A stretch of 64,000 nt of DNA from a virus. Its lineage: Duplodnaviria; Caudoviricetes. This document shows positions 4,944 to 64,000 of this stretch, piece after piece (the stretch's first letter is position 1; each line of letters opens with the position of its first letter). A program made the position numbers and the translations under genes. The notes under the pieces are model-generated. The model did not search any database and was not told the DNA's origin. It was given only the letters and a program-made list of their open reading frames with translations. The stretch covers positions 6,185 to 70,184 of IMG/VR virus record IMGVR_UViG_3300006217_000029. The stretch is one strand, 5' to 3'.

Positions 4944-6775
4944 ATCTGAAGCCTTGGAAGTCCCTTTTCGACATCAAACCATGTCGGAACTGCATCGGAG
5001 CAGACAAAGGAGAAAAAATCGGTCGTGGCATCGCTCGCAGTTTCATAATGAACCGGAAGCTCACGCCGGTCGTTCATTATATGCAGATAGGCAAGGCGTG
5101 TGACTGAAGGAAGGGTGGCTTTGTAAAGCCCTCTCCACCATCCGTCATCGTTGATTTGATACAAAGTCCACTGGCTTTTCTTGCGGACGTTCTGCAAGAC
5201 AGCATATCCGGCAAACCCTTGCCGTGCTTTCAGAAGTTCGGAAAATCCATCCGGGATGGCATTGCGTAACGCCTTTTCCCATGGTCCACGCAATTCAGCG
5301 CGTTCACCCTTCGCCTTTTCCCTGTCAGCATATGCCTTTCTGGCCTCGCGTTCGACCTCTCGCATTTTTTGGGAAAGCTCTGGGCTTTGCCGCGCGCATA
5401 CCCCCAGGAACAACTTGAAATGCTCCGGGTCTTTTTCGATAAAATTTGCGAGATGCGCCGGTGAAGACATGTGCTGCAAGGCCATGGAGAAGACTTCCGA
5501 TGCTTCGCCCTGGTAGTCCTTCCCGACATAAGGGTTGATGAAAGAATCGGGAAAAGCTTTTTCCCCAGGCCCATACGCACCGCCTGTCATTGTTTTCAGC
5601 GACTTTGGTGCGCCTTGCGCCCTGCTCCTGATAAAGGAGAGGCTGGCTGCAAGCGCGGTGCGGTCCCAGCGCTCAACAAGGTGGCCGCACTCATGGAAGA
5701 GCGTTGTTTTGTTGAAGTCAGAATCAAGGCAAATTTGCGAACGTCCCCGCGCAAAGGCCCGTCGAGTGCCTTTTTGGAGGATAAACTCCACGGGGCCGAG
5801 TTTGCCCCCAAGATACTGATACACTTCGGCCATATCGTTAATAAACTGCTCCTTGGGATAGTTTATTTTTTTGAGCTTTCTGGCGACATTGGGGGCAATG
5901 TAAACATTTTCGTTTGCCCATTCCTGCGCCTCTTCTTTTGATATGGACGATATGGATTCGAGTGCTTTTTTTACACTTTCAAAAGTTTCCTTTTCTCGTG
6001 CTTCTATATCCTTTGCAAGGCTTTTCATACGGTTATACAATTCAGCGTATTCAGGATTATCCGCTCTTTCCTGCTCCATCAAGGCCGTTTTCATTTCAGA
6101 AATGCGCCTTATGAGTTCAGAAGCATTTTCTCCATATATCATATCTGATTTAGTAAACCGGTCTATACGTCCCTCAGTAATTTCAGAAATAACGTATCCC
6201 GGAACACGGAACATACCATCTTGACGTAATAAAGAAAAAATTCTTGCGTTTATTCTTTGTGTGACTTCTGCGAATTTTCCTGAATAAATATCCTTGTGCA
6301 GCTCATTCAAATTATTTTTGAGAGCCTTTGCTTCTTCCATCTTGGATATGATGTCAGAAAAATTATTTTGGATGATTGATGCACCCGATTCGATGATGAC
6401 CTTTCTCACTTCATCCGGCGTCGAGGATTCGGCCATTTCCAAGAGTTGCGCGTTTTGGGGCGAAGCGTCTCTGACGGCTGCCAGGGCGGCATCATTCCGG
6501 GCGATTCTTGCCATTGCGGCGAACTCGTAGAGAACATCGGCGGCCGGGCTGGGCGATGACTGAATCCGTTCTATGTATCGTTCCAGGGAGGCAACCAGTT
6601 CGGGGGTCTCGGAAGAAATGATCTCTCCATGGCGCGAGAAAACACTGAAGATGGCAACGATGTCGCCAAAACTCTTCGCATCTCGCACGGCCTGCGTTGC
6701 CGATTCCAGCGTGCTATAAAATGCCACAGTGCTATCCCGCGTTGTTGGCTTGCGCTTCTGCACCTCGGCGTTCAC
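4940..6775 (-). CDS. ddrB: DdrB-like protein with HEXXH zincin motif
   Basis: FHECGHLVE and SEVFSMALQ resemble the P1 DdrB C-terminal region as recalled; position in dar operon. Confidence 0.7.
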   Translation of the reverse strand: MNAEVQKRKPTTRDSTVAFYSTLESATQAVRDAKSFGDIVAIFSVFSRHGEIISSETPELVASLERYIERIQSSPSPAADVLYEFAAMARIARNDAALAAVRDASPQNAQLLEMAESSTPDEVRKVIIESGASIIQNNFSDIISKMEEAKALKNNLNELHKDIYSGKFAEVTQRINARIFSLLRQDGMFRVPGYVISEITEGRIDRFTKSDMIYGENASELIRRISEMKTALMEQERADNPEYAELYNRMKSLAKDIEAREKETFESVKKALESISSISKEEAQEWANENVYIAPNVARKLKKINYPKEQFINDMAEVYQYLGGKLGPVEFILQKGTRRAFARGRSQICLDSDFNKTTLFHECGHLVERWDRTALAASLSFIRSRAQGAPKSLKTMTGGAYGPGEKAFPDSFINPYVGKDYQGEASEVFSMALQHMSSPAHLANFIEKDPEHFKLFLGVCARQSPELSQKMREVEREARKAYADREKAKGERAELRGPWEKALRNAIPDGFSELLKARQGFAGYAVLQNVRKKSQWTLYQINDDGWWRGLYKATLPSVTRLAYLHIMNDRRELPVHYETASDATTDFFSFVCSDAVPTWFDVEKGLPRLQI

Positions 6776-7694
6776 GGATAGGCCTCCACTTCGGGAGACG
6801 GCTCTTGATGTCTTCCTCGCGTAGCCAAACCTCTTGGCCCTTGAGAACGTCCGCGATTTCCTCAGCAGTCAGAAAGCCGGAATACAGTTCATCGAACCAC
6901 TTCCTGAAATGCTTTTCCAGGAACGTACTTTGGGCCTTCATGTCGCCGACCTTTCCCCACGAAAACCCCGAAGCATTGTGAATCATCATGGTACAGTGGG
7001 GAGTGGTCTGAATCTCATCGCAGGACATGGCCACGATGGAGCCGGAGGAATAGGCCGTGATGATGCGCGCGATGGTCTTGGCCTTGCATTCCATGAGGGC
7101 TGCATAGACGGCCTGAGCCGAATCGGTGCGGCCTCCGTGGGAATTGATTTTGAGGGTGACAGTATCCACTTCGCGCGCCTGTTCAATGGCGCGGATGATG
7201 CCCCGGAAGGTTTCGGGAGACTCAAAATCGGTGTCGATGTCTATGATGATGTTCTGCGGAGCGCCGTATTCGAGGCCTTTTGGCAAGGAGCGAACGGCTC
7301 CATTTGCCTGATTTTTTGCGTCAAAAGGACGCACCGGTAAAAAAGAAGATACATCGGCGCTCTCGAACACGCCTTCTTCGCTATGGTGCTCCGCGAGGTA
7401 GGCGATAACCGGGTCTTGAATCATCTGAATATTGCCGTTCACCTCGGCCAGAGCCTTCTTCAGAATCGCAAGGAAGCGGGCCGGAACTTCCTTGAGAAAT
7501 TTTCCGGCAATAAGCTGCTCGAAGAGTGATTGGGAGTCACCCCCAGACACGCCTTTCAGCTTGTCCAGCGCTTCCTTTATCTGTCTTTGCGTGGCAAGCC
7601 GCTGCCGGATGTCTTTGATGCCTGACTTGAGCTTGTCGAGACCTTCCTTGACCGCCCGTTGAAGGGTCAGTTTTTCCTTGATATTCAACATCAT
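6732..7694 (-). CDS. DdrA-like N-terminal domain fused to a ClpP/S14-type serine protease domain
   Basis: INSHGG, AYSSGS (Ser), MMIHNAS (His) ClpP-type motifs; ~105-aa helical N-terminus in the ddrA slot between darA and ddrB. Confidence 0.75.
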   Translation of the reverse strand: MMLNIKEKLTLQRAVKEGLDKLKSGIKDIRQRLATQRQIKEALDKLKGVSGGDSQSLFEQLIAGKFLKEVPARFLAILKKALAEVNGNIQMIQDPVIAYLAEHHSEEGVFESADVSSFLPVRPFDAKNQANGAVRSLPKGLEYGAPQNIIIDIDTDFESPETFRGIIRAIEQAREVDTVTLKINSHGGRTDSAQAVYAALMECKAKTIARIITAYSSGSIVAMSCDEIQTTPHCTMMIHNASGFSWGKVGDMKAQSTFLEKHFRKWFDELYSGFLTAEEIADVLKGQEVWLREEDIKSRLPKWRPIRERRGAEAQANNAG

Positions 7695-8839
7695 GCGGCC
7701 TCCTTGGCCAGCAGATCGGTCAGGTGATTCGATGCGGCATCCAAGAGGGCTTGGAACTCTTCAAGCTTGCCGTCACTCTCCGCGGCCGTGATTGCCTGTT
7801 CGAGCAGGTCAAGCACCTTGCCGGAATCGGCATCGTATTTGCCGTCCAGAATGTCCCGAAGGTCGCGGGCATAGTGCGGTGTGCCACTACCATTGCCCGC
7901 AGTGTCACCCTTTTTACCTTTGCCATCGCCAGAGGTTCCGCCTGTTCCGCCGCCGGGCTTGGCCCTGCGCAGCGCGTCAATCTTCGCCTGCAATTCCGCG
8001 TTGATGGTCTTCTGTTTCTCCAGTAGGGAAAGCGTGTTGGAAAGCCGCGCTTCAATGGTTTCCGTCTCTTTGGCCTTGGCGGAAACCTGTTCCATCAGGG
8101 CGGACTGGCGTTCTTCCGCGTCCTTTACGGCCTCACGGGTTTCTTCAAGCTCTTTCCGCTCCGCTTGCGCCGCTTTCTGCTGGCGCTCAAACCTCGCCGA
8201 GTTCTTGACTACGAGTTGCGTGATACGCTTCGCAATGCTCTCCAGAGAGATTTCTTCCCCGTCTTCGGGGGCCACGACATGCGTAATGTCCCGCTTGTTG
8301 AGGAGCCAGCGGAAGGCAATAATGGCGTCACTTGGGCCGATGCGTTTTTTATCCCCTTCCGGCGAATGGAAGACGACATTCACCGTTTGTCCATCGGAGA
8401 AGGGAAGCTGCACGATAACATACGCAAAGGAACCGGATTTCTTCGGCTTCCCGACAACCGGAGGCAAGGCTTTGATTTCCGAATCGGAGAGGTGCCGGTT
8501 CAGTACCCGCACCACGGCGGCCATGCGGCGTTCCGTGCGCGAGAAGTGCTCAACGGTTATAGCCTCAAGAACATAGCCTTCCTCGACCTCATCCCTGCCG
8601 GGATTGTAGTAGTCCAGTTCGTCCAGGGAAGGCGATTCGAGCAAGAGACCAAGGTCGTGAACGTCATTGGCGAGGCTTGCATAGGTGGCATCAAGCTCGA
8701 CTTGAGAAAAGCCCTTCGGAAAGAGATCGTCCCTGTCCACGACACGATGCCCTTGCCAATACGGGTTGGGGGCGCTTACGGGAGTGGCACCGTCTTCGGA
8801 TGCAAGCGCAGGCTCAAAGAAATCAAAATCCCCGTTCAT
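7691..8839 (-). CDS. darA: DarA-like antirestriction/head protein
   Basis: LPFSDGQTVNVVFHSP, AFRWLLNKRDITHVVAP, KNSARFER and C-terminal AASNHLTDLL match P1 DarA motifs as recalled. Confidence 0.85.
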   Translation of the reverse strand: MNGDFDFFEPALASEDGATPVSAPNPYWQGHRVVDRDDLFPKGFSQVELDATYASLANDVHDLGLLLESPSLDELDYYNPGRDEVEEGYVLEAITVEHFSRTERRMAAVVRVLNRHLSDSEIKALPPVVGKPKKSGSFAYVIVQLPFSDGQTVNVVFHSPEGDKKRIGPSDAIIAFRWLLNKRDITHVVAPEDGEEISLESIAKRITQLVVKNSARFERQQKAAQAERKELEETREAVKDAEERQSALMEQVSAKAKETETIEARLSNTLSLLEKQKTINAELQAKIDALRRAKPGGGTGGTSGDGKGKKGDTAGNGSGTPHYARDLRDILDGKYDADSGKVLDLLEQAITAAESDGKLEEFQALLDAASNHLTDLLAKEAA

Positions 8840-9444
8840 GCTTGTGCCCCCTCCAGTTCTGTCAGTATGCGCTCCAGTTCGACGGTTTTATTTTGTTCCG
8901 CCTTGAGGGCTGCCACAGCCTTGTCCAACTCAGCCTGCTTCATTTGAACTGTGGTTTCCGTTGCGGAAATTTGGGCCTGAAGGTCTTCGTTGCTTGCAGT
9001 GAGTTCTGCAAGCTGGCCCTTGGCACGCTCAATCTTCTCCCGGCGGTTTGTGACCACTGGCGGCGGGTCGATATGCAGCTTGCGTCGACGTTCCCGTTGG
9101 AGCTTCGCACGCTCATACGCCTTCGCGTTTTCCTGGACGTAATCCACCATCTCGATGATGGCCTTGTCCATGTCATCCACATGCCGGATAGGGACGACCT
9201 TCTTGTTCAGCTTGACCTGAAAGACGGTACCATCAGACTTCACGCGAACGAGCATCTTTTGGCCGTCCTCGAAGACGAAGGTCACGTCTTTGAGCAAGAA
9301 GCCACTTTCCCGGCGCGCGCGATTCGGCGCATCCACGGACGTGACCTCCAAACCCCATTTTTCCATTTTTTTGATGATCGGGCGGAGATTCTGTTCCGTG
9401 AGCTTGTCAAATGGGAGCCGAACTTGCTTTGATGGTGCTGCCAT
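8836..9444 (-). CDS. hdf: Hdf-like protein (DarA-related)
   Basis: FDKLTEQNL...DGQKMLVRVKSDGTVFQVKLNKK plus coiled-coil tail; directly upstream of darA as in P1. Confidence 0.8.
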   Translation of the reverse strand: MAAPSKQVRLPFDKLTEQNLRPIIKKMEKWGLEVTSVDAPNRARRESGFLLKDVTFVFEDGQKMLVRVKSDGTVFQVKLNKKVVPIRHVDDMDKAIIEMVDYVQENAKAYERAKLQRERRRKLHIDPPPVVTNRREKIERAKGQLAELTASNEDLQAQISATETTVQMKQAELDKAVAALKAEQNKTVELERILTELEGAQA

Positions 9445-9550
9445 GCGTGGAACCTCGCAAAAGTATGGTTCCGCTCATGGTCGTAAAGCCATCAAGACCC
9501 GGCAAGAAGATTTTATGAATATGTGGCAGATATGCAGAGGTTCGATATTT

Positions 9551-10630
9551 TCACGCCATGCGTCCGCGTGGAGGGCGGACCAGGACAAGCTCGGAGAGAA
9601 CGCTTTCCGTTGTTCTGGTGGCGTCACAGTGCTTCATCTGGCCGCAGAATGAAGCCACTCGCGGGCGGATGTAGTCCAAATCTATTTTCCCTTCGGCGTA
9701 TTCTCGCGCAATCCTTCTGAAATCAAGCCTTGCCCGGCGTGTGTTGCGCTTTCTGGGCAAAGTATGTGTTGTCCAGTGTCTATATCCAGAAAAATCAATG
9801 CCGTGTGATATAGGAAAGATGGACGTTTTCGGATTTAGATTCAATTCAAGCTCTTCATTCAGAAAATTTTCAATAGATGCAAGAATTGATTTCAAAAATC
9901 GTTTATCTTCGCCAACGATTATAAAATCATCCATATATCTGACATAGAATTTGACCCCCAATTCATCTTTTACAAAATGGTCGAACTTATCCAGATAGAC
10001 ATTTGCAAAGAGTTGCGATGTCAATGCCCCGATGGGGAGCCCTGAATCGGTAAAGCCGTTTTTCAGGACGATTTTTCCGCAGAGATCAAGCACATTCACA
10101 TCGCCCAGTGTCCTTGCAATCTGGCGTAACAGAATGCCGTGCCGGATGTTGGGGAAGTAGCTTTTGATGTCCGCCTTGAGCGCATAGGGATGGAACCAGT
10201 TCGCGCTTGCGGTTGTGATAAAACTGCGGAGTCGTTTGCTGGCCTCGTGCGGCCCTTTGTCTTTCCGGCAGGCAAAGCTGTCCGGGATAAACCGCCGTTC
10301 AAAGAACGGTTCGATGACTTTCACAAGGGAACGATGGACGATGCGGTCTGCGAAAGTGGGCGCCTGGACAAGGCGGAGTTTGGGTTCTCGAATAACGAAC
10401 TCTCGACACGGAGAAGGGAACCACGTCCCGGCAATCAAGGCTCGTTGGATTTCAAGCAGGTTGTCTTCAAGGCGTCCGTAGAATCGGAGTACCTCATCAT
10501 AGTACCGTTTTCCACAACGCGCTCCATGCCATGCGGCGTATAGGTTGCCGAAGTCCACGACCTGCGGCCATAAATTTTTTGCGGGTTTTGGCATAGGCTC
10601 CAAAAAAGGACCGGAACCGCGTTCAGGCAT
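9551..10630 (-). CDS. DGR reverse transcriptase
   Basis: RT motifs PTFADRIVH, GLPIGALTSQ (DGR-type [LIV]GxxxSQ), YVRYMDD; no maturase or endonuclease domain; beside Avd and TR. Confidence 0.95.
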   Translation of the reverse strand: MPERGSGPFLEPMPKPAKNLWPQVVDFGNLYAAWHGARCGKRYYDEVLRFYGRLEDNLLEIQRALIAGTWFPSPCREFVIREPKLRLVQAPTFADRIVHRSLVKVIEPFFERRFIPDSFACRKDKGPHEASKRLRSFITTASANWFHPYALKADIKSYFPNIRHGILLRQIARTLGDVNVLDLCGKIVLKNGFTDSGLPIGALTSQLFANVYLDKFDHFVKDELGVKFYVRYMDDFIIVGEDKRFLKSILASIENFLNEELELNLNPKTSIFPISHGIDFSGYRHWTTHTLPRKRNTRRARLDFRRIAREYAEGKIDLDYIRPRVASFCGQMKHCDATRTTESVLSELVLVRPPRGRMA

Positions 10631-10752
10631 CTTACTTGCCGTTCCGGCCCCATTGTTGTTTCCCCGGCGCTGTTGGCCGAGGGGGACTACAACCCCAAAT
10701 CACTCGCGCTGTCCACGCCCCCGGTAGGGACATGGCCTCTGGCGGGTGCTGA

Positions 10753-10851
10753 TTTGCGAGACGGCCTCCAATGTTGATGTTTGCATTACTCGATGGATTA
10801 TTGAAATTCAGGCAAAAAGGGCCACAGTGCGCCCCATTATTCCAATTGCCG
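10753..10851 (-). repeat. DGR template repeat (TR)
   Basis: 99 bp aligning ungapped to 12410-12508; reads GNWNNGAHCGPFCLNFNNPSSNANINIGGRLA with 9 AAY codons; between avd and RT. Confidence 0.95.
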
Positions 10852-10856
10852 CCCTT

Positions 10857-11234
10857 TTAGGTTGTAGCCCTGCTATCTTGTGTCCCAGGTTTTGGGTCAC
10901 GAACATGTTTGAGCCATCCGCCAAGCATCCTTCCGACTTCGGAAACATGACCAGACCACACTTCATATTTATGGTCGTTGATGTAACCAAGGTTTCTGGA
11001 CATACGAATCAGAACACGAAGGTATTCAAGCTCTATGTCCATATCCTGCAATGTTGTCTTTTTGTAATAGCGTTTGGCGGAAGTGATTGTGAGGTGAATC
11101 AGAGTGGCAAGGGTATTGCGTATATCCTGCGCGAGAACATGCCTTTCTGACTTTGGAAAGAGCATAACGGTCTGATGAGAATACTGATTCAGTTCCTCCA
11201 GTTTCGTCAGGATTTGCAAGCTATCCAATGCCAC
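10857..11234 (-). CDS. avd: DGR accessory variability determinant (Avd, four-helix bundle)
   Basis: FPKSERHVLAQDIR...DIELEYLRVLIRMS...EVGRMLGGWLK; probable GTG start at 11234 (track start 11288). Confidence 0.9.
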   Translation of the reverse strand: MALDSLQILTKLEELNQYSHQTVMLFPKSERHVLAQDIRNTLATLIHLTITSAKRYYKKTTLQDMDIELEYLRVLIRMSRNLGYINDHKYEVWSGHVSEVGRMLGGWLKHVRDPKPGTQDSRATT

Positions 11235-11235
11235 G

Positions 11236-11259
11236 AAAAAGCCCCCTTTGTCAGGGGGC
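11236..11259 (-). terminator. Intrinsic terminator-like hairpin immediately before avd
   Basis: GCCCCCT-gacaa-AGGGGGC followed by TTTTT on minus strand. Confidence 0.65.
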
Positions 11260-11291
11260 AAGGTATCATTGGCCAAACAGACAGACAAGAG

Positions 11292-11639
11292 CTATTCGGG
11301 GCCGGCGCGAATATCAGGGGGCAAGTGCCGTCCCTCCCTCTCCGAAATGTACGATTCCCGGCAGTGGTTGATGTCACCCAGGCAGGCGGCCAGAAAATCC
11401 ACAACGACACGAGGCCACCGCCGCACACCGCTTATTTCCCAGCGCCAGCAATGGGCGCTGATAGTTTCATCGGCCCACCAATAACCCGCGGCGCGGGGGA
11501 GAAGGTATAGCAGGCCAAGAAGGCCCAGAAACAGCCCCAGAGAGGCGTTTCCGAGCTGGTCTGCCGCAATGAGGCATTGCTTCGCATTATGGCGAAATGC
11601 GGCCTTTCTGGGGCCAAATCGCCAGTCCCACGTTTTCAT
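11292..11639 (-). CDS. Small phage protein of the tail-fibre region
   Basis: 115-aa ORF, 4-nt overlap with upstream gene; QLGNA...DETISAHCWRW pattern. Confidence 0.65.
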   Translation of the reverse strand: MKTWDWRFGPRKAAFRHNAKQCLIAADQLGNASLGLFLGLLGLLYLLPRAAGYWWADETISAHCWRWEISGVRRWPRVVVDFLAACLGDINHCRESYISEREGRHLPPDIRAGPE

Positions 11640-12052
11640 GCCCCTGCTCCCGGAAGCGCATAGATGACTTCGATGGCCGCCACCTGTTCAGGAGTGGTAC
11701 AGGCGTCCAGCATATCCTCAAACTTCTGCCTCTGGCCGATGATTGCACCGGACGCGGCAGAAAAGGCTGTAGCTTTGACGATGACGCGATTACACAGGTC
11801 TTGCAGTTCTATGCCACGCGCTTGGGCAAGCGGGGCCAGAAGCGGGCATGGTTTGCTCTGGTCGGAGAGATATGCTTCCGCCTCCGTCTTTTGCTGGTCG
11901 AAGGTGAGGAGTTCGGAACCGGGGTAGCTCTTGGTCAGAACGCCCAGCATCATATCACACTGGTCGTTGATCTCGGCCAGTTTTTGGGCCTTGGCGTGTT
12001 CCACGCCTGACAGCCAGGTTTCAGGATTCACCCCTTGGTTACTTCTGGGCAT
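11636..12052 (-). CDS. Tail fibre assembly/chaperone-like protein (DUF4376-like)
   Basis: KAQKLAEIN...YPGSELLTFDQQKTEAEAY...LAPLAQARGIEL pattern typical of tail fibre chaperones. Confidence 0.7.
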   Translation of the reverse strand: MPRSNQGVNPETWLSGVEHAKAQKLAEINDQCDMMLGVLTKSYPGSELLTFDQQKTEAEAYLSDQSKPCPLLAPLAQARGIELQDLCNRVIVKATAFSAASGAIIGQRQKFEDMLDACTTPEQVAAIEVIYALPGAGA

Positions 12053-12302
12053 ACTTCACCCCCTCCGCGAGATAGATTCTTTTGCAGGATTTGCCGTCCT
12101 GCGTCATTTCCAGGTGGGCAAGCATGAGTGTATCGCCGATGGCACAGGCAGGGATGGGTTCGATTTCCCCGTTGGCCCATGTTGCGAGGTACAGGCCGTC
12201 ATCGCTGTAGTTTTCAGGTACTGCGTACAGCTTCACATGGCCGGAAAGCGGTACGGGCGTAGTGAACTCCTGTCCGCCATAAGAAAATTTGATTTCGGAC
12301 AT
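12039..12302 (-). CDS. Hypothetical protein downstream of tail fibre
   Basis: 87-aa ORF with AAGGAG RBS, overlapping next gene. Confidence 0.6.
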   Translation of the reverse strand: MSEIKFSYGGQEFTTPVPLSGHVKLYAVPENYSDDGLYLATWANGEIEPIPACAIGDTLMLAHLEMTQDGKSCKRIYLAEGVKYAQK

Positions 12303-12329
12303 ACGCTTTCTCCTTCAAAAATATTTTCG

Positions 12330-12369
12330 ACCGCCTTCGGCGGTAAAGCACGGCCGCCTCTCGGCGGCC
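12330..12369 (-). other. Two GC-rich hairpins downstream of VR (DGR target-recognition cruciform candidate)
   Basis: GGCCGCC-GAGA-GGCGGCC (12352-12369) and ACCGCC-GAA-GGCGGT (12330-12344). Confidence 0.7.
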
Positions 12370-12402
12370 TTTTCAGAAAGGCAGTGAACAGGACACAGTA
12401 GC

Positions 12403-14091
12403 CTAAATCTTTGCGAGACGGCCTCCAATGTCGATGTAGGCAAGACTCGATGGAGAAGTGAAATACAGGCAAAAAGGGCCACAGGGCGCCCCATCATTCC
12501 AAGTGCCGGCCTGATAACAAACACCATTAGCAACTGGCCCCCAAAAGCCGTCCGCGTATGTTGCGCTGTTTTCCGCCCCGGTAACAACTTCCGGCAGAAA
12601 AACATCATCGAAGTTGTAACCGTCACCCTTGCCGGAACGCATGGAAACCGGCCAGCCAGTGAGACCGCTGGAGTATGGCGGCATGGCAAATCCCGTGGAA
12701 ATCCACGCGCGTGTGCCGTCATTCTTGAAAATTTCCGTCTTCTTGTTGGAATCCGCCCGAACACCATCAAGCATCTTCCAGACGTTTCCGTAGAGGGCGT
12801 GGAAGCCGCGGTATGGGACATGGTTGACCAGGCTGTCGGTGTTGACGGCATAGCTCGTTTTCCCATCCCATGTCTTGTCCACATTGCCGCGACCCAACCT
12901 GGACTGAGCATCGGTCGTTGCAAGCTCAATGAGCATGAGCAGGGTCAAGGCCGACCACTGATAAACATCCCAGAGCATGAACCCCGACACACCGTTGACG
13001 TTTCTGTTGGCGCAGTAGGTCTTCATCGTATCAAAGTTCACATTGACGAAGGGGAGTTTGCCGGGCCGGGAACCGAGTTTCTTCGGGTTTCCGCCTTCAT
13101 CCGTGGCTTCGTAGCAGCCAAGCAGGTAGTAGGGAATCTGGGCGTTATTGTGCATGAACGCCGGATGAATGCGGAATCCCTCTTTCTGGCCCGGAGAAAT
13201 AAGCTTGCACGGCTTCCCCGCGAACATTCCTTCCGTGGGGGTGAAGTCCTTCATCCAGAACTGGGGAATCTTGCCCATGATTTGATCGTCCACAATCATG
13301 CGCCGGATGCCCCCGAAAACCGGATTATTGTCGAAGTAGGCGGTGTTGGGCGACACCGGATTCCCTTCTTCGTCAATGTTGAACCAGAGGCCGGCGCCGC
13401 CGCCTGTTGCCACACGGCAGATGCCGATAATGGGACTTGTATTGCCGACAAGGATATTCTCGAAGAGGGCGGCGTGGGCGGATTCGCTGGAATCGTGCGC
13501 GGAAACGGCAGCCTTCGCTTTTTTCTCCACAAACTCTGAAATGGAGGCCGTACCGCCATCTTCGGCCCCTCCCTCTTCACCAGGAAGAGAAAAGCCGGTG
13601 ATGTCGTCCATCGTATGATGGTGAGGCTTCGGATCGCGCGCGTCCGAAAGCCGGTCATCATTATCCGCTACGGCTCCGATGTCCGCAGGGGTGAGGGCAT
13701 CAGCGGCGCCTGCTGCATGTGTCTTGGCGTGTGCCACCAGATTGATTTGCCCGTCAGACTCACCGATTTTGTCATTGACGGCATTGGCAGCGGCGGCAGC
13801 AATCATCTGATACATGGCACTGTCGGGATTATCCAGACCATGCGCCAGGGGGCTTTCGTTATGGGCTGCAACAGCCTCGGCAATCTGGGAGGCGGATGCG
13901 CCGCCACCAATGGCCCCCCCGTGAGCGCTGGAATCGGCTTCGTGCTCCGCAAGTCGGGCAAGCGCCCTGGCTACATCGCCGCCAAGCTGTTCCTGGGCGG
14001 ACGCAAGCGCATCTGCCCCCTTATCCAGTTTATCGGCGACATCCTGCATCGTGGGCTGCATGTCGGGGATTTCGTTTTCGGGCATTGTCAT
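12403..14091 (-). CDS. Tail fibre / receptor-binding protein, DGR target with C-terminal C-type-lectin-like domain
   Basis: N-terminal AH..AH fibre repeats; C-terminal domain ending in VR (GTWNDG...IGGRLAKI). Confidence 0.9.
   Translation of the reverse strand: MTMPENEIPDMQPTMQDVADKLDKGADALASAQEQLGGDVARALARLAEHEADSSAHGGAIGGGASASQIAEAVAAHNESPLAHGLDNPDSAMYQMIAAAAANAVNDKIGESDGQINLVAHAKTHAAGAADALTPADIGAVADNDDRLSDARDPKPHHHTMDDITGFSLPGEEGGAEDGGTASISEFVEKKAKAAVSAHDSSESAHAALFENILVGNTSPIIGICRVATGGGAGLWFNIDEEGNPVSPNTAYFDNNPVFGGIRRMIVDDQIMGKIPQFWMKDFTPTEGMFAGKPCKLISPGQKEGFRIHPAFMHNNAQIPYYLLGCYEATDEGGNPKKLGSRPGKLPFVNVNFDTMKTYCANRNVNGVSGFMLWDVYQWSALTLLMLIELATTDAQSRLGRGNVDKTWDGKTSYAVNTDSLVNHVPYRGFHALYGNVWKMLDGVRADSNKKTEIFKNDGTRAWISTGFAMPPYSSGLTGWPVSMRSGKGDGYNFDDVFLPEVVTGAENSATYADGFWGPVANGVCYQAGTWNDGAPCGPFCLYFTSPSSLAYIDIGGRLAKI
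12410..12508 (-). repeat. DGR variable repeat (VR)
   Basis: 12 mismatches to TR, all at TR adenines; last 33 codons before the terminal Lys-Ile-stop. Confidence 0.95.
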
Positions 14092-14795
14092 CCTCTGTTT
14101 GCCGGGCTTGCCGGGCTATAGGTGTCTTCATCCCCCGCCGCCGCGCTTCCGGTAAGGGCGAGGGTCGTAAGCCGACGGGAAAGATGTATCATCCGCGTGG
14201 TGGATTCGGCGTGCAGGATGAGCGTTCTCCGGGTATGCCTTTCAAGCTGCTCGGAGAGCGCTTCCATCTGTCTGACTGTGGCAATGTCGGCGTTGGCCTT
14301 GTCAATTTCATCCGAAGAAATCATGTCCTCGGTGATGACCACCGCCTCACCGGGAGCCGACGCTTCCCCGTCACCATCGTCGCCCTCATCTTCTCCGGGT
14401 TCCGTCAATGGCATACCGGCTCTGACCTTGCCCAGCACGACATGGTGCGGTTCCGGCTGTTCCCGAACCACAATGCGCTGGTACCCTTGCTGCGTGGGGG
14501 CGTAGAACGCCTCAAGGCAGACGAACCATGTTCCCGTGGCCGGGATACGCACAAGGCCGGGATCGTCCATAACTACCGTGAGGGAATAACCGTTCCGCTC
14601 AACCACGGCTACGCTACGCGGATAGTCCGATCCGTGATCTACGAGAACTGACATGGTGCCGCCGGGTTTGAGTACAAAGCCATGATAGACGCCAGGCTTG
14701 ACGATTCCGGCCATCTTCATGTTCAGAGCGCGGGAAACATATTCTTCCCCCCAGCGGACACTCTGGCGCAACAAGGGGGCGTCATTCGTTGCCAT
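14088..14795 (-). CDS. Proximal tail-fibre protein resembling the N-terminal domain of P1 gpS
   Basis: EEYVSRALNMKMAGIVKPGVYHGFVLKPGG resembles the P1 S N-terminus as recalled; GGAGG RBS; ATGA overlap with fibre gene. Confidence 0.7.
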   Translation of the reverse strand: MATNDAPLLRQSVRWGEEYVSRALNMKMAGIVKPGVYHGFVLKPGGTMSVLVDHGSDYPRSVAVVERNGYSLTVVMDDPGLVRIPATGTWFVCLEAFYAPTQQGYQRIVVREQPEPHHVVLGKVRAGMPLTEPGEDEGDDGDGEASAPGEAVVITEDMISSDEIDKANADIATVRQMEALSEQLERHTRRTLILHAESTTRMIHLSRRLTTLALTGSAAAGDEDTYSPASPANRG

Positions 14796-15225
14796 CTGTG
14801 CGTTCCTCCTCACGCGGGAAGGTTATGGCCGGGAACGCCCGATAGACCTCGGCAGGCGTTACCCAGTCGGGAAGTGTGGAGCAAACGGCAATCAGATCCC
14901 CCTCATCATCGAAGATGCCGATAAGGTTGTGGCGTACCGGAGCGCCGACAGCGCCTTGCGGGATTTCGCATTTGCACAGAGCAATCCCGGCGCTGTAGGA
15001 TACGTCTACAAATCCCCGGTAAAATTCTCCGGGGATTTCCTTCATATCTGGGGGAATGTCCTGCAATTCCAGCTCAGATGGGCTGTATTCATCCACCAGT
15101 CCAAAGCCGGCGCGGAACTCCACGAAACGGGGACAACGCCCAATGCCCGCAGCGGCCATGCCTACCTTGTCATAGTACCGATTGAGCAGCTTTGCTCGTT
15201 GCCATACTTTCGGAGTTTCAGGCAT
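14782..15225 (-). CDS. P1 gpR-like tail/baseplate protein
   Basis: KLLNRYY and LIGIFDDEGDLIAVC patterns; synteny gp16-R-S. Confidence 0.65.
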   Translation of the reverse strand: MPETPKVWQRAKLLNRYYDKVGMAAAGIGRCPRFVEFRAGFGLVDEYSPSELELQDIPPDMKEIPGEFYRGFVDVSYSAGIALCKCEIPQGAVGAPVRHNLIGIFDDEGDLIAVCSTLPDWVTPAEVYRAFPAITFPREEERTDGNE

Positions 15226-16387
15226 ATGCACCTCCTACGGGCATATCCAGAGGGAATGTATCAGCGGGGATGTCATCGAAACGCGGATAGCGATCCAGAC
15301 GGTCCAGACCTTGAAATTTTACGGACATGGACACGTTCTTTTCGCCTGCCGCATCTATTTCCGACACGAACGGCGTGGGGCACGAGGGAAGCGTCGTCTT
15401 CTCCACATGGATTTCCAGTTCCCCCAGACTTTGACGGAAGATGATAGAGCGTTTTTTCTCAATCAGGTACAGGCCAAGAGGAATACAAGGCTCTCCTTCG
15501 TGTCCGGCCATATACCAATCAAGGGGCAACCAGTCGGGGGGAAAACCCTCTGGAGCGTGCCAATCCATGTGCCAGAAGCGCTCTTTCGGTCTGATAAAGG
15601 GGATGGCAATGCAAGGCTGCTCACGCTCCCATCGGCAAGACATCTTTTGCACGTCAAGCGGACAGGCATCGGCATCCGTTGAATCGAAATACGTCCCCTG
15701 AACGGCAAAATTCATTTCAAAAATACCGCAGTCGCGTTCCCAGGAAGCAACAGGATTGCCTTCAAACGGGAAGTCAAAACGCGCATACCAGAGAGTACCG
15801 TCAAAGACGATATGCAGCGGTTTGGCGCGCAGAAGAAGCGGAAGGGCCTTGTCGAGGAAAGTCTGTTTTGTCAGGCCAAGGGAGAGAAGGTGCGCGTGGT
15901 CGGTTCCCAGAAGGCCCCGTGAGGTAAGGAACATTCCCTCCGGCGGGACGTTTTTCTTTTCTGGCCATGGGCCATCGGCGGGGATGAAGCGCGTCCCGTA
16001 GGGTTCATCAAGAGGGGCAAACAGCGGGAACCAGGTGACGGGAAGGTCGCTGTAATGCCTGCGGAAGACAGAAGTGATAATCAGTTCGAGGTCTTTGTAC
16101 TCAAGTTCAAGACGCCTCCAGGCAACAGCAATGGGGCGGTCTTTCGACCGCGGCATGTCCGCCGCAAAATAGTCGCCCATTTCGCGCAGTTTGCGCGCCA
16201 GGTCGGCGTCATCAGCACTGAAATATGAGCGGAGAGCTTCAAGCCGTACAAGCTGCGGGTCAAAGTCCTGCTCCCAGATTGTCTGGGTGCTTTCGGCCAG
16301 CCCCAACCAGCGGTCTTCTTTTTGCTTGCGAGGCGTGAGCCTTTTGACGAGCCAATCTTTCATTTCGCGCCTGATTCCCGGCTTCAA
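15218..16387 (-). CDS. P1 gp16-like baseplate protein
   Basis: YGTRFIP, GMFLTSRG, KPLHIVFDG motifs; synteny. Confidence 0.75.
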   Translation of the reverse strand: MKPGIRREMKDWLVKRLTPRKQKEDRWLGLAESTQTIWEQDFDPQLVRLEALRSYFSADDADLARKLREMGDYFAADMPRSKDRPIAVAWRRLELEYKDLELIITSVFRRHYSDLPVTWFPLFAPLDEPYGTRFIPADGPWPEKKNVPPEGMFLTSRGLLGTDHAHLLSLGLTKQTFLDKALPLLLRAKPLHIVFDGTLWYARFDFPFEGNPVASWERDCGIFEMNFAVQGTYFDSTDADACPLDVQKMSCRWEREQPCIAIPFIRPKERFWHMDWHAPEGFPPDWLPLDWYMAGHEGEPCIPLGLYLIEKKRSIIFRQSLGELEIHVEKTTLPSCPTPFVSEIDAAGEKNVSMSVKFQGLDRLDRYPRFDDIPADTFPLDMPVGGAYA

Positions 16388-16510: not shown

Positions 16511-16567
16511 ATGGAATGGGAAGTGGAGTACATGAAGGATGGATTATTGGATGGCCAGGAATTTTAA
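16511..16567 (+). pseudogene. 18-codon remnant of a RelE/HigB-type toxin (internal deletion)
   Basis: MEWEVEY joined to MKDGLLDGQEF*, overlapping the antitoxin start. Confidence 0.55.
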
Positions 16568-16868
16568 ACTGCTTGAAGCGAGAATGTCGCCGGAAGCCCT
16601 GGCGCGTTCAACGGCAAAGGCTGACGAAATGTTGAAAGAGATGCGGCTTTCCGAATTACGAAAAGCGCAAGGATTGACACAGAAAAACCTGGCGGAAATT
16701 CTTCATGTGCGCCAGCCGACTATCGCAAAGATGGAAAAAAAGACAGACATGTATATTTCCACGTTGAGAGAACATATTGAAGCGATGGGCGGCGAACTTT
16801 ATGTCATTGCCAAATTTCCCACTGGAAGCGTAAAAATAACCAATTTTTACGATATGGAGGTTATGTGA
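16551..16868 (+). CDS. XRE/HigA-type HTH antitoxin (orphan)
   Basis: LSELRKAQGLTQKNLAEILHVRQPTIAKMEK...STLREHIEAMGGEL. Confidence 0.85.
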   Translation: MARNFKLLEARMSPEALARSTAKADEMLKEMRLSELRKAQGLTQKNLAEILHVRQPTIAKMEKKTDMYISTLREHIEAMGGELYVIAKFPTGSVKITNFYDMEVM

Positions 16869-18267
16869 GATACGCGATTTGAATTTGTGAATTATCAAGG
16901 TCGAGACTCACCATCTGGTAAATGAGGTTGGCCTCAAAATGCCCTTCCGGGACAGCCTCGAACCATGCTCCGGTTTCTTTTTCAAAGTGCCCTGTGGACT
17001 GGATGCACTCGTAGATTTCGGAGACAAGCACCTTGTCGCGCCGATACAGCGAATCGCGGCCATATGCCCGCATGAGGGCCGCGCGAACGTCTTCATCGAC
17101 CTCCGAAAGCACCTTGTCCGACAAGACCCGTGCGGTAAGTCTCAGCGTGAAGGATACATGCTCCGGGTTGTACCATTGAAAGTTGCGGCATAGCATGGGA
17201 ACATCCGCAATGGCGTTCATCACGTCCTGCACTATGCCTTCTCGCGGGGCGTAGGCGCATATCCAGATTTTATTGATGTGTTCGAGCTTTGGCCCCCAAA
17301 GGCGTTCCGCTTCTTCTTCACCCCATGCCCGCACAAAAACCACTTCCGGGAATCGGCGGCGAATGAAATATTCGTAGTCGTTGTCCCAGACAAGCCGCTC
17401 GTTGTACACGGACCAATAGTGCAGGTTTCGGCGCATTTCTTCTGTTGATTCCTGCGCCTGACCGTTTTGGATGGTTGTTTCCACCTCAATATTGAGAGAT
17501 GCCGGGACACCGGCAACATCAACGATTTCTTCCAGGGGATAAAGGTATTGCCGCTCCAGAAGAAGCGTGTCCCCATCCGTGTACTTGATGTCAATCCGCA
17601 CCTGTGCGCCCTGTGGCGGAATTTTACCAAAGGTGCCATTGCCGAACCTGATGCCTATCTGATCGCTCACATGATAGAACTCGTCCCAGACAAAAGAATC
17701 CCGATATGCGTTCGTCAAGAGGCGGCTGTACTCCCATTTCCGGAATCCATCTCCGCTATCAACCCAGACTTCGAGGGCCATTACTTTCGGGGTTAGAGCC
17801 TTGTCGATAAGAATCTCATAAAACGGCTTTTCTTCGCTTACGGTATGAAGAATTGAGGTTTTTCCGTACTGTGTGACAGGAGCGGCCACCTTGCTCTGCG
17901 CGGGGACAAGCAGCTTGAGACCCAACGTATAGGGAAGCTGCGCATCGGACACGAACTCGCGCCCTCTCTTGAGCAGGACAGGGCGCGGCCCCGCATTGGT
18001 GAAAAGAACCGTCCCTTCGCTGGGTTTGGGCTTGCGGGGAAGATATTCACGGTCTTCGGCGTGGGCGACAAGGCTTGAACGATTCAGAGCCGTTCCGATG
18101 AACGCTTCCTGGCGTGCGCGCTCGATTTTGAAGTTTGCATCTTCGACGGTCCACCCCATGAAAATGGCAAGATGCTGTACGAATTGCGAATTTGTAAGAC
18201 TTTTCCACGAGGGGAGGGAAGACAGGAGCGTCTTCAGTTTATTTGCAACCTGTTCGTTCAGAATCAT
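16861..18267 (-). CDS. bplA: BplA-like baseplate wedge protein (baseplate J family)
   Basis: EAFIGTALNRSSL, GIRFGNGTFGKIPP, VWDNDYEYF, VRAWGE motifs. Confidence 0.8.
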   Translation of the reverse strand: MILNEQVANKLKTLLSSLPSWKSLTNSQFVQHLAIFMGWTVEDANFKIERARQEAFIGTALNRSSLVAHAEDREYLPRKPKPSEGTVLFTNAGPRPVLLKRGREFVSDAQLPYTLGLKLLVPAQSKVAAPVTQYGKTSILHTVSEEKPFYEILIDKALTPKVMALEVWVDSGDGFRKWEYSRLLTNAYRDSFVWDEFYHVSDQIGIRFGNGTFGKIPPQGAQVRIDIKYTDGDTLLLERQYLYPLEEIVDVAGVPASLNIEVETTIQNGQAQESTEEMRRNLHYWSVYNERLVWDNDYEYFIRRRFPEVVFVRAWGEEEAERLWGPKLEHINKIWICAYAPREGIVQDVMNAIADVPMLCRNFQWYNPEHVSFTLRLTARVLSDKVLSEVDEDVRAALMRAYGRDSLYRRDKVLVSEIYECIQSTGHFEKETGAWFEAVPEGHFEANLIYQMVSLDLDNSQIQIAYLT

Positions 18268-62571: not shown

Positions 62572-62922
62572 ATGATGGACACCGAACTCCTGACGGCTGA
62601 TGAAATGTGCGAGAGGCTAAAAACCAACTTTGACACGTTTCGCAGGACTTGGAAGCGCTGGAAGCACGAGCGCGTGGGCGTTGGCAATACGCTCCGCTCC
62701 ATGCGCTTCTACTGGCAGTCTGGGCCGGTCAGGGCGGAGGCGACGAACGATGGCGGTATCGAAGTATCAGACAAAGAACGGACCGCGCTGGATTGCCGAC
62801 GTGTATCAGGACGGAATACGCATCGGAAGGAAGGCGGGGTTTCGGACAAGGCGCGACGCACTGGCGTGGGAAGAGGAGCAGAAAACTTGTCGGACGCAGC
62901 CCGAAGATTTGGGCTTGCGTGA
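62572..62922 (+). CDS. Excisionase-like HTH protein
   Basis: ELLTADEMCERLKTNFDTFRR; immediately before and overlapping the integrase. Confidence 0.55.
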   Translation: MMDTELLTADEMCERLKTNFDTFRRTWKRWKHERVGVGNTLRSMRFYWQSGPVRAEATNDGGIEVSDKERTALDCRRVSGRNTHRKEGGVSDKARRTGVGRGAENLSDAARRFGLA

Positions 62923-63922: not shown

Positions 63923-63928
63923 CCCCTT
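63897..63928 (-). terminator. Terminator-like hairpin downstream of tRNA-Ser
   Basis: Minus strand AAGGGGTTAC...GTAGCCCCTT then T-run. Confidence 0.6.
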
Positions 63929-63934
63929 GAAATC

Positions 63935-64000
63935 TGGCGGAGAGGGGGAGATTCGAACTCCCGGTGCGCTGTTAACGCACACACGATTTCCAATCGTGCT
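63935..64000 (-). tRNA. tRNA-Ser(GGA), 3' part (truncated by window); probable att site
   Basis: Reverse complement: GCACGATTGGAAATCGTGT anticodon arm, long variable arm, GTTCGAATC, CTCTCCGCCA end. Confidence 0.9.

Follow-up and report, generated by a model that had tools for sequence, protein, structure and literature searches.

A DGR cassette at the tail-fibre locus of a distant P1 relative, in the interval that holds the Cin switch in P1

The window analysed here, a 64,000-nucleotide stretch of the Caudoviricetes record IMGVR_UViG_3300006217_000029, very probably comes from a distant, integrating relative of P1 that carries a standard DGR receptor-binding cassette in the interval where P1 has Cin, the interval itself being a three-state hotspot of module exchange. 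In the arrangement that we propose, the tail-fibre operon ends in a self-contained receptor-binding cassette, comprising the last 350 residues of the distal fibre, three small ORFs, avd, the template region (TR) and the reverse transcriptase (RT) gene. The cassette would be set between bplA-16-R-S N-domain and the Dar antirestriction operon (hdf-darA and following genes), where P1, P7 and D6 hold the S tip, U, the alternative S'-U' copy and cin. Across P1-like phages, the junction would take one of three states: a plain fibre with a chaperone, a fibre with a DGR, or an invertible fibre with Cin.

The source contig is circular (70.1 kb) and appears to represent a temperate myovirus, distantly related to P1, that would integrate by means of the tyrosine integrase encoded at positions 62630-63922. 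Its ends carry a 77-bp terminal repeat, which was considered as a prophage att duplication and set aside; because 77 is a standard assembler k-mer size, an assembly overlap of the circular contig is the likelier origin. The probable host, judged by MAG binning, is a gut bacterium of the Desulfovibrionaceae, either Bilophila or a relative such as Desulfovibrio. A megablast search of GenBank phages with 16 kb of the window returned no match, and tblastn detected no counterpart of the P1 rep, par, cre and c1 regions in the window phage. On its gene content, the phage appears to be a distant integrating relative of P1 and not a Punavirus, the elements of the plasmid prophage lifestyle (repA/parAB, cre-lox, c1 immunity) not having been detected in it.

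Searches against PHROGs and Pfam, together with tblastn against P1 (AF234172), resolved the minus-strand order as bplA, gp16, R-like, S N-domain, distal fibre, three small ORFs, avd, TR, RT, hdf and a darA-like gene. This bears out the order gp16-R-(S N-domain)-fibre-[DGR]-hdf-darA given by the sequence-only reading, which overlooked the three small ORFs between fibre and avd. The flanking genes are all P1 homologues, with 26-37% amino acid identity, the exceptions being S (52% over a 44-residue N-terminal match) and R, which is weak. The left anchor of the slot is a gp16-like baseplate/tail-tube protein of 389 aa (15218-16387, minus strand; phrog_2015, E 5e-40; tblastn to P1 gene 16, 30% identity, E 5e-19). 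It is followed on the same strand by a 149-aa R-like protein (14782-15231) of the size and position of P1 R, which is 44-95% conserved in relatives and matches phrog_2032 (E 4e-4) and, weakly, the P1 R profile in hhalign (probability 54%, E 1e-4, collinear from end to end, over 120 columns). The S N-terminal domain, the baseplate-proximal fibre adaptor, forms a separate 241-aa protein (14088-14813, minus strand) with matches to the P1 S N-terminus and to tail-fibre PHROGs; its stop overlaps the start of the distal fibre gene, and this split is kept in related loci L004, L026, L046, L017 and L018. The right anchor is the first gene of the Dar operon, a 202-aa hdf homologue (8836-9444, minus strand; phrog_1620, E 8e-37; PF18788; tblastn to P1 Hdf, E 9e-22), followed by a 382-aa protein with a darA_N-like domain (7691-8839, minus strand; PF18788, E 4e-30; tblastn to P1 darA, 35% identity, E 3e-29).

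The tblastn comparison yielded 13 collinear P1 homologues, with pacB, dmt, mat and gp7/25/26 elsewhere in the window phage genome. The structural and Dar genes follow P1 order (sit-pmgA-bplA-16-R-S ... hdf-darA-ddrB-darB, prt, pro, pacB), and the PHROG families of BplA, gp16, PmgA and Hdf are all matched. By this collinear gene set the backbone can be classed as P1-like (Punavirus-like), and the P1-like family would now extend to phages that integrate in sulfate/sulfite-reducing bacteria of gut and sediment and retain the whole Dar antirestriction operon. In P1 itself the annotated order is 16-R-S-U-[U'-Sv']-cin-lydC-lydA-lydB-hdf-darA, with an identical layout in D6, so that R-S-U-cin-lyd does lie between gp16 and hdf, as the sequence-only reading had it.

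The DGR in this interval is canonical. The 359-aa RT (9551-10630, minus strand; PF00078, E 2e-20; phrog_1423, E 1e-123) contains the (I/L)GxxxSQ motif, as IGALTSQ at residue 200, and the YxDD motif, as YMDD at residue 232, and its nearest phage counterparts are annotated as DGR RTs, among them the one beside Avd in BalMu-1. The accessory variability determinant gene, avd, adjoins TR and RT (10857-11288, minus strand) and matches PF22296 (E 4e-29, 101.8 bits against a cut-off of 40), phrog_3206 (E 2e-36) and NF033474 (E 9e-31, 106 bits against a cut-off of 80). Its true start is probably near 11234, just downstream of a terminator-like hairpin and T run detected by consensus scan (11241-11259, minus strand); in L026 the gene is called as a 125-aa Avd with its start beyond the equivalent point, and an exact-match look-up of the 143-aa product returned nothing, probably because the real start gives 125 aa. 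The TR (10753-10855, minus strand) begins 1 nt past the avd stop and leaves 122 nt between its end and the start of RT; it spans 103 nt with 29 adenines and nine AAY codons in the frame of the variable region (VR). The VR occupies the last 34 codons of the fibre gene (12410-12512, minus strand) and is likewise 103 nt long and 87% identical to the TR. Of the 13 mismatches between them, 12 fall at TR adenines (hypergeometric p = 3.7e-7), the sole exception lying at the 5' edge. The last 22 nt at the 3' ends of TR and VR are identical, a GC-rich stretch that includes GGAGGCCGTCTCGC and is a candidate IMH.

Roughly 35 nt downstream of the VR lies a GC-rich hairpin with a 7-bp stem and a GAGA loop (12352-12369, minus strand; DNA fold z = -2.3), which may act as a DGR target-recognition cruciform or as a terminator, and a second hairpin is found at ~12330-12344. 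Three small minus-strand ORFs fill the space from here to avd. The first, o87 (12039-12302), has no family match and no useful Atlas match, and its homologues lie beside the same fibre tip and DGR in L004, L046, L040, L043 and L049. The second, o138 (11636-12052), belongs to the HI1402_helical family (phrog_2618, E 1e-30; PF27318 on near-identical and related copies), has a 54% identical copy in the non-P1 cassette of L040, and is a candidate fibre chaperone or accessory protein. The third, o115 (11292-11639), is a small protein with one hydrophobic segment (phrog_3342, E 6e-12) and a 55% identical copy in L040. The three were considered as equivalents of LydC, LydA and LydB, an assignment dropped after tblastn gave no match to the P1 Lyd proteins, and against which it also counts that they accompany the fibre/DGR cassette outside P1-like settings. 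A plus-strand ORF at 11931-12401 was likewise rejected as a gene: it has no family match, and its conservation is explained by o87 and o138 on the opposite strand, of which it is an antisense shadow.

No trace of the invertible fibre switch typified by Cin, Gin and Hin, with its serine invertase, inverted fibre 3' duplicate and cix sites, was found. A search for resolvase-family genes (PF00239) gave no match anywhere in the circular contig (positive controls matched in 12 of 14 genomes), and the TR/VR pair is the only repeat above 50 bp in the circular genome besides the 77-bp assembly overlap, leaving no inverted fibre duplicate. P1 Cin, U and Lyd have no tblastn match in the window phage genome. 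Both absences had been claimed from the letters of the window and hold for the complete circle.

Surveying phages with darA and hdf for cin or a DGR RT at this locus resolved the slot into three states. Relatives were retrieved from IMG/VR with an Hdf alignment, a single-sequence Hdf scan having given nothing; metagenomic fragments make up most of these related loci. Of the 22 P1-like lineages, 11 have a DGR in the slot, two have cin (P1 and D6) and the remaining nine have neither. Besides the window, a DGR with an adenine-biased TR/VR pair occupies the same slot in L004, L046, L005, L006, L009, L017, L018, L021, L049 and the Moritella plasmid pMR24a. A plain fibre, accompanied by a chaperone or by a small gene resembling a fibre gene, is found in L020, L022, L023, L024 and an Acinetobacter plasmid, and L007, L013, L050 and a Vibrio plasmid have neither DGR nor invertase. 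No surveyed relative's locus gave a Cin match in the 10 kb around the slot, and PF00239 was not detected in four full-length relatives; the invertase check covered +/-10 kb for most loci and the whole record for six. No lineage among the 22 carries both cin and a DGR, and the flanks of the window are homologous to P1 hdf and gp16, and weakly to R, so that neither of the findings named beforehand as fatal to the proposal was made.

The cleanest case is pMR24a (NZ_CP056124.1), a plasmid prophage of the cultured gammaproteobacterium Moritella sp. 24. Like the window, it has a P1-like sit-pmgA-bplA-16-R-S-fibre(VR)-avd-TR-RT arrangement, with a 116-nt TR/VR pair in which 11 of 13 mismatches fall at adenines. 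Unlike the window phage, it retains the lyd genes and has a non-Cin serine recombinase far from the fibre; it also stands nearer to P1 on the backbone tree, and its RT shares only 37% identity with that of the window. Its order, R-S-fibre(VR)-avd-TR-RT-o117-lydA-lydB-hdf-darA, places the DGR where P1 has U, the C-segment and cin. We considered the serine recombinase as a second invertase-type switch and dropped it, given its distance from the fibre, the lack of similarity to Cin at E < 1e-3 and the absence of inverted repeats nearby. PGAP annotates Avd in the pMR24a record, and we found no paper discussing it; Moritella sp. 24 pMR24a offers a cultured test system for a DGR in a P1-type backbone.

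The history of the cassette departs from that of the backbone. The nearest RTs to that of the window, 52% and 48% identical, lie in L040 and L043, where the similarity to the window is limited to the cassette (fibre residue 213 to RT) and the P1-like flanks are missing; the three known non-P1 RT contexts were defined from 6-17 kb of flank. The closest backbone relatives, L005 and L006, show 55-65% identity on Hdf, DarA and BplA and RTs that are only ~27% identical. The RTs of P1-like loci are interleaved with those from non-P1 contexts, and a single clade for them is rejected (AU test p = 0.0003). On a tree of Hdf plus DarA_N, two short proteins with some rows partial, the DGR state needs at least four changes, the direction of each of which, gain or loss, we infer. 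Since the RTs do not form one clade and the unit from fibre tip to RT recurs in non-P1 phages, we favour modular exchange, with DGR cassettes, common to unrelated phage backbones, having probably entered the junction several times. The proposal of one P1-like chassis with two interchangeable host-range diversifiers is upheld in that sense, as exchange of modules at a receptor-binding hotspot; 'one chassis' is generous for a phage with 26-37% identity to P1 and a tyrosine integrase.

A quite plausible alternative, to which we give somewhat less than an even chance, is that the shared location is coincidental: a plain ancestral fibre locus would have gained Cin in the enterobacterial P1 phages and, separately, DGRs elsewhere, the one never being exchanged for the other. 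Co-location is largely expected, because both systems can act in cis only from the fibre gene's 3' end; 'neither' is the commonest neighbour state of both cin and DGR on the backbone tree, where the Acinetobacter plasmid (neither) is sister to D6 (cin) and L007 (neither) to L009 (DGR), and the surveyed lineages include no close relatives of which one has cin and the other a DGR. This account fits most of the data and differs from the modular-exchange reading only in the word interchange. It sits less easily with pMR24a, which groups on the backbone tree with P1, D6 and the Acinetobacter plasmid and has lydA-lydB-hdf-darA right after its RT, so that all three states share the same interval within that one clade.

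A single ancient acquisition, with a DGR in the ancestor of the non-enterobacterial P1-like phages followed by vertical inheritance and repeated loss, would require no swap site at all. It could account for the presence of DGRs in all five lineages of the Desulfovibrionaceae backbone clade and in all three of the L017/L018/L049 clade, and for the clustering of DGR presence on the backbone tree relative to shuffled labels (only 3 of 500 shuffles were as low). We consider it unlikely in view of the interleaved RTs, the divergence of RTs within the very clade in which every member has a DGR, and the reappearance in L040, away from all P1-like flanks, of the whole cassette with its small ORFs and fibre tip.

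The variable protein itself is a 562-aa distal tail fibre (12403-14091, minus strand; phrog_5302, E 2e-32). Searches of Pfam, NCBIfam and PDB with the whole fibre sequence gave nothing useful, and a profile and a structure model were required. Residues 1-212 are specific to the window phage lineage, and residues 213-562 form an exchangeable C-type-lectin/FGE-like tip, whose AF2 model (pLDDT 94) retrieved TaqVP (5VF4, E 8e-13), TvpA (2Y3C), FGE and Mtd in Foldseek; a profile also matches 5VF4 (E 5e-12). The tip is accordingly modelled with the C-type-lectin fold of known DGR variable proteins, with the VR at its C-terminus. The position of the gene, the S-like adaptor and the fold similarity together point to a fibre. 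Phage DGRs directed at proteins other than fibres do exist, for example at Hoc-like proteins in Toutatisvirus (10.1101/2024.10.15.618418), and the protein might by that token be a decoration or adhesin for non-host ligands and its DGR no host-range device. We regard this as improbable, since the gene comes after R and the S N-domain in a P1-type fibre operon and encodes a fibre-like N-terminal part, and since other phages carry this tip on a range of N-termini, collagen-repeat and Phage_fiber_2 ones included.

The DGR looks active, as judged from three natural variants that differ mainly at TR-adenine positions. Comparison of the window with L026, whose fibre gene is 97.8% identical in nucleotides, and L004 placed 17 of 22 variable VR columns at TR adenines; L004 has copied its own non-adenine TR substitutions into its VR, and several short-read contigs break at TR or VR. 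That it is a decaying relic with a fibre no longer diversified is very improbable, the one non-adenine mismatch at the 5' edge being nothing specific, all ORFs and catalytic motifs being intact, VRs of 98%-identical isolates differing at TR-adenine sites, and TR and VR of L004 co-varying at non-adenine sites.

Under the modular-exchange reading, the DGR would act in the manner standard for its kind: a complex of RT and Avd would reverse-transcribe TR RNA with misincorporation opposite adenines, and the resulting cDNA would replace the VR, the last 34 fibre codons. About ten positions, mostly encoded by AAY, would be randomised on the ligand-binding face of the C-type-lectin-fold tip, altering receptor specificity, and VR variation may in this way change host range. 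No new mechanism is revealed; what the comparison adds is a map of the unit that can be exchanged, which runs from fibre residue ~213 to the RT end. More speculatively, and with something close to an even chance of being right, the fibre-adaptor/Dar junction could be a hotspot of cassette exchange, conserved in P1-like phages from two or more bacterial phyla, into which whole modules (fibre tip, small accessory ORFs and diversifier) are recurrently imported from unrelated phages. Separate acquisitions of DGR modules would number at least three or four, the P1 Cin/C-segment would be just one such import, and o87, o138 (HI1402_helical) and o115 would be new fibre-assembly or DGR accessory factors.

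The DGR of Bordetella phage BPP-1 (mtd-avd/bbp7-TR-brt) shares with the window a target gene ending in the VR and followed by avd, TR and RT, as well as adenine-specific TR-to-VR differences, AAY codons, a seemingly invariant GC-rich VR 3' end and a C-type-lectin-fold receptor-binding tip, Mtd being among the Foldseek matches. The window differs in its P1-like myovirus backbone, BPP-1 being a podovirus, in a tip whose best structural match is TaqVP and not Mtd, and in three extra small ORFs between target gene and avd, which set VR and TR 1.66 kb apart. The C-segment of P1, P7 and D6 with its Cin switch occupies the same interval, between 16-R-S(N) and (lyd)-hdf-darA, and has the same presumed purpose, to change the receptor-binding C-part of the S fibre behind a constant N-part. 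The mechanisms are unrelated: site-specific inversion in P1, P7 and D6 offers two pre-made alternatives, whereas mutagenic retrohoming in the window would offer very many variants. The window also differs from these phages in having no serine recombinase, cix sites or inverted S'/U' copy, and from P1 in the absence of lydA/B/C from the interval.

Phage Mu has gin and the G-segment beside its fibre genes. The Mu-like BalMu-1 carries an FGE-type target, then avd and RT, after its tail genes. RTs 37-38% identical to that of the window occur in the Vibrio myovirus VHML, which we take to be P2-like, and in several Burkholderia phages of unverified backbone type. Mu-like prophages of D. piger have DGRs on GpH-like fibres (PMC12724379), and the receptor-binding protein hotspot of P2-like phages often holds invertases (10.1101/2024.10.15.618418; see also KS14, PMC3091744). 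The either/or of invertase and DGR at a fibre locus is already visible in Mu-like and P2-like phages, which are different families; in the literature searched, we found no report of the DGR alternative in the P1-like family. To these two groups the P1-like phages can now be added, as a family with inversion, retro-mutagenesis or neither at the same receptor-binding locus.

The 64-kb window forms part of a 70,184-bp IMG/VR virus record whose ends overlap by 77 bp, indicating a circular assembly of ~70.1 kb. Translated comparison (tblastn) with the P1 reference AF234172 revealed collinear matches at 26-37% amino-acid identity to pro, prt, ulx, darB, a ddrB-like gene, darA, hdf, S (N-terminus), gene 16, bplA, pmgA, sit and pmgB, with S reaching 52% over a 44-residue N-terminal match; P1 gp7, gp25, gp26, mat, pacB and dmt were matched elsewhere in the same genome. 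This collinearity, together with the lack of matches to P1 rep, par, cre and c1 in the same comparison and the presence of a tyrosine integrase (62630-63922), defines a distant, integrating P1 relative. Megablast identified no nucleotide-level relative among GenBank phages. The terminal overlap (window 63924-64000 and the 77 bp upstream of the window) holds a tRNA-like 3' segment adjoining the integrase, suggesting a circular genome whose attP lies within part of a tRNA gene, and hence an integrating lifestyle unlike that of P1.

The region under study runs on the minus strand through bplA (16861-18267), a gp16-like gene (15218-16387), an R-like gene (14782-15231), the S N-domain gene (14088-14813), the distal fibre gene (12403-14091), three small open reading frames, o87 (12039-12302), o138 (11636-12052) and o115 (11292-11639), the diversity-generating retroelement (DGR) accessory gene avd (10857-11288), the template region (TR; 10753-10855), the reverse transcriptase (RT; 9551-10630), hdf (8836-9444) and a darA_N-like gene (7691-8839), followed by a ClpP-like protease, a ddrB-like gene, o97 and darB. 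Family searches back every gene name in the region, the weakest being R (phrog_2032, E 4e-4), for which a six-member clade profile matched P1 R collinearly end to end (probability 54%, E 1e-4). The P1 record reads 16-R-S-U-[U'-Sv']-cin-lydC-lydA-lydB-hdf-darA-ddrA-ddrB, and the layout of D6 is identical. These family searches and the P1 comparison bear out the gene order proposed for the window in the sequence-only reading, which omitted the three small open reading frames between fibre and avd, and the P1 annotation agrees with the order it gives for that phage. The 320-aa ClpP/S14-like protease-domain protein between the darA-like and ddrB-like genes (6732-7694; PF00574, E 1e-10; phrog_1827, E 5e-42) is kept in most relatives of the window's clade and is not in the P1 darA operon. 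A 109-aa HTH/Xre-like regulator on the opposite strand (16539-16868, +) breaks the late structural operon between bplA and gp16, a site where P1 has nothing.

The absence of an invertase and of an inverted fibre duplicate, also claimed from sequence inspection, held in three analyses: a resolvase-family search returned no match across the whole genome (the same search was positive in 12 of 14 control genomes), tblastn with P1 Cin, U and LydA/B/C gave no match in the genome, and the sole internal repeat above 50 bp is the TR and its variable region (VR).

The DGR itself is canonical, of the standard BPP-1 type. TR and VR span 103 nt with 13 mismatches, 12 of them at TR adenines (hypergeometric p = 3.7e-7); the TR carries nine AAY codons in the fibre reading frame, and the final 22 nt, which include GGAGGCCGTCTCGC, are the same in both copies. 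The RT has the DGR-type IGALTSQ and YMDD motifs, and Avd scores above the NCBIfam cut-off. Fibre residues 213-562 were modelled with AlphaFold2 from a 37-sequence alignment (mean pLDDT 94). The top Foldseek match of the model was TaqVP, the DGR variable protein of Thermus aquaticus (5VF4, E 8e-13), also recovered by a sequence profile; Treponema TvpA, formylglycine-generating enzymes and Bordetella phage Mtd were also among the best matches. Two GC-rich hairpins lie 3' of VR, the first a candidate DGR target-recognition cruciform or terminator. A strong, terminator-like GC hairpin with a T run (11241-11259, -) lies inside the longest avd open reading frame, just 5' of the probable avd start (a related gene call gives an Avd of 125 aa), and is a candidate for attenuating read-through from the fibre operon into avd-TR-RT.

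A comparison across three natural variants argues for DGR activity: the window itself, L026, whose fibre gene is 97.8% identical, and L004, a MAG contig binned as Bilophila (~89% identical). Variable VR columns fall at TR-adenine positions in 17 of 22 cases; four of the other five are substitutions in a strain's own TR mirrored in the same strain's VR, the pattern expected if VR receives copied TR information, and the remaining one is the single window mismatch outside TR adenines, at the 5' edge. Several short-read contigs stop exactly at TR or VR, among them L027, L028 and L030 (Logan contigs), which are independent assemblies of the same phage; such breaks fit the TR/VR repeat and VR heterogeneity in the population.

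To survey this slot, Hdf homologues were aligned and the alignment served to retrieve loci, each with 10-kb flanks, from genomes, metagenomes and IMG/VR; the search extended to GenBank phages and PLSDB plasmids. Slots were classified with a detector of adenine-biased TR/VR pairs together with tblastn of proteins from the window and from P1. Three states emerged (DGR, cin and neither), with both systems together at no surveyed locus. A same-slot DGR was found in L004/L026, L046, L005, L006 (= L015, L016), L009, L017, L018, L021, L049 and the Moritella sp. 24 plasmid pMR24a. The cin state was found in P1 and D6, the sample's enterobacterial records with an inspected slot. Neither system was present in L007, L019/L020, L022, L023, L024, L013, L050 or phage-plasmids of Vibrio parahaemolyticus and Acinetobacter venetianus; where annotated, such slots hold a fibre gene with a Tfa-like chaperone or small fibre-like gene. 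P1 Cin had no match at any DGR-bearing locus, and four full-length IMG/VR relatives had no resolvase-family gene. The most telling case is pMR24a (sit-pmgA-bplA-16-R-S-fibre(VR)-avd-TR-RT-o117-lydA-lydB-hdf-darA), in which the DGR lies exactly in P1's U/C-segment/cin interval, directly upstream of the lyd-dar operon. Its one resolvase-family gene was rejected as a fibre invertase, being far from the fibre, not Cin-like and with no inverted repeats nearby. PLSDB holds 656 plasmids with a DarA match, and pMR24a is the sole record common to the DarA and RT searches among the matches listed (40 of 656 for DarA). At one V. parahaemolyticus plasmid locus (L044; NZ_CP046830.1, 72174-73441), hdf comes immediately after a short (184-aa) S N-domain-like gene and the slot lacks a distal fibre gene; any receptor-binding part must lie elsewhere or be missing. 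Two DGR-bearing loci (L017:6338-9848 and L018:7247-9876) have extra genes between RT and hdf, among them one for a 941-aa 'virion structural' protein and one for a small protein resembling tail fibres, so the slot also gathers other cargo.

Several lines of evidence indicate that the cassette is mobile and that DGR cassettes have been taken up repeatedly, as modules. The RT nearest to the window's in a library of 1.8 billion proteins (P0115, 52% identical) and the next (P0116) are located in L040 and L043, loci of other phages that have only the cassette in common with the window: L040 shares fibre residues 213-562 (49%), o87, o138, o115, avd and RT, L043 shares the fibre tip (40%), avd, RT and an o87-like gene, and neither has P1-like flanking genes. 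The same tip was seen joined to further N-termini, collagen-repeat and Phage_fiber_2 among them. A maximum-likelihood tree was built from nine P1-like RTs and three from non-P1 contexts (L040, L043, BalMu-1); in it the RTs of the window, L004, L017, L040 and L043 form a clade (support 100/99), and monophyly of the P1-like RTs is rejected by the AU test (p = 0.0003). The closest backbone relatives after L046, L005 and L006 (55-65% identity on BplA/R/Hdf/DarA), have RTs only ~27% identical to the window's, and the window's avd and fibre tip are undetectable there by tblastn. On an Hdf+DarA_N tree of 22 lineages, built from two short proteins with some rows partial and with gain indistinguishable from loss, DGR state requires at least four changes; close pairs differ in state (L009 with a DGR versus L007 with none; L021 with a DGR versus L050/L013 with none), and pMR24a, with its DGR, is sister to the group formed by P1 and D6 (cin) and Acinetobacter (none).

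The small genes o87/o138/o115 (window 11292-12302; L040:6321-7298; L046:7047-8042) move with the fibre-tip/DGR cassette between unrelated phage backbones (47-55% identity). The o138 family is the uncharacterised HI1402_helical (PF27318), o115 has one hydrophobic segment, and the three may be fibre chaperones or DGR accessories. A few kb downstream of its cassette, L040 encodes a 4441-aa polyvalent protein (L040:16202-17059) with ddrB-ParB, N6_Mtase, helicase and MuF_C domains, another capsid-delivered antirestriction-type giant near a DGR.

The observation that a DGR occupies P1's Cin slot is confirmed, and its interpretation, that one P1-like chassis may use two interchangeable host-range diversifiers, is supported with caveats. 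The resemblance of the backbone to P1 is only distant. The surveyed loci included no pair of close relatives in which cin had been exchanged directly for a DGR, and the shared position of the two systems largely follows from the requirement that each work in cis at the 3' end of the fibre gene.

As a principle, a DGR or invertase beside fibre genes has precedent. In phage Mu, gin adjoins the fibre genes. The Mu-like Bacillus phage BalMu-1, the best GenBank-phage match to the window RT (40%; best 40 of 159 RT records), has its tail genes followed by an FGE-type target, avd and RT; the 24 phage records in GenBank that encode a P1-type BplA include no genus prominent among these RT matches (best 40 of 159). 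GpH-like fibre proteins of Mu-like Desulfovibrio piger prophages are DGR targets (PMC12724379), and a Gin/Cin-like invertase occurs in KS14 (PMC3091744). P2-like phages often have invertases in their receptor-binding hotspot, and 68% of Toutatisvirus members have a DGR in a hotspot of theirs (10.1101/2024.10.15.618418). Our literature search found no publication naming both 'P1-like' and DGRs. To this background the analysis adds a three-state picture of the slot, evidence that DGR cassettes were acquired repeatedly and as modules, the limits of the unit that is exchanged, and one cultured example, pMR24a.
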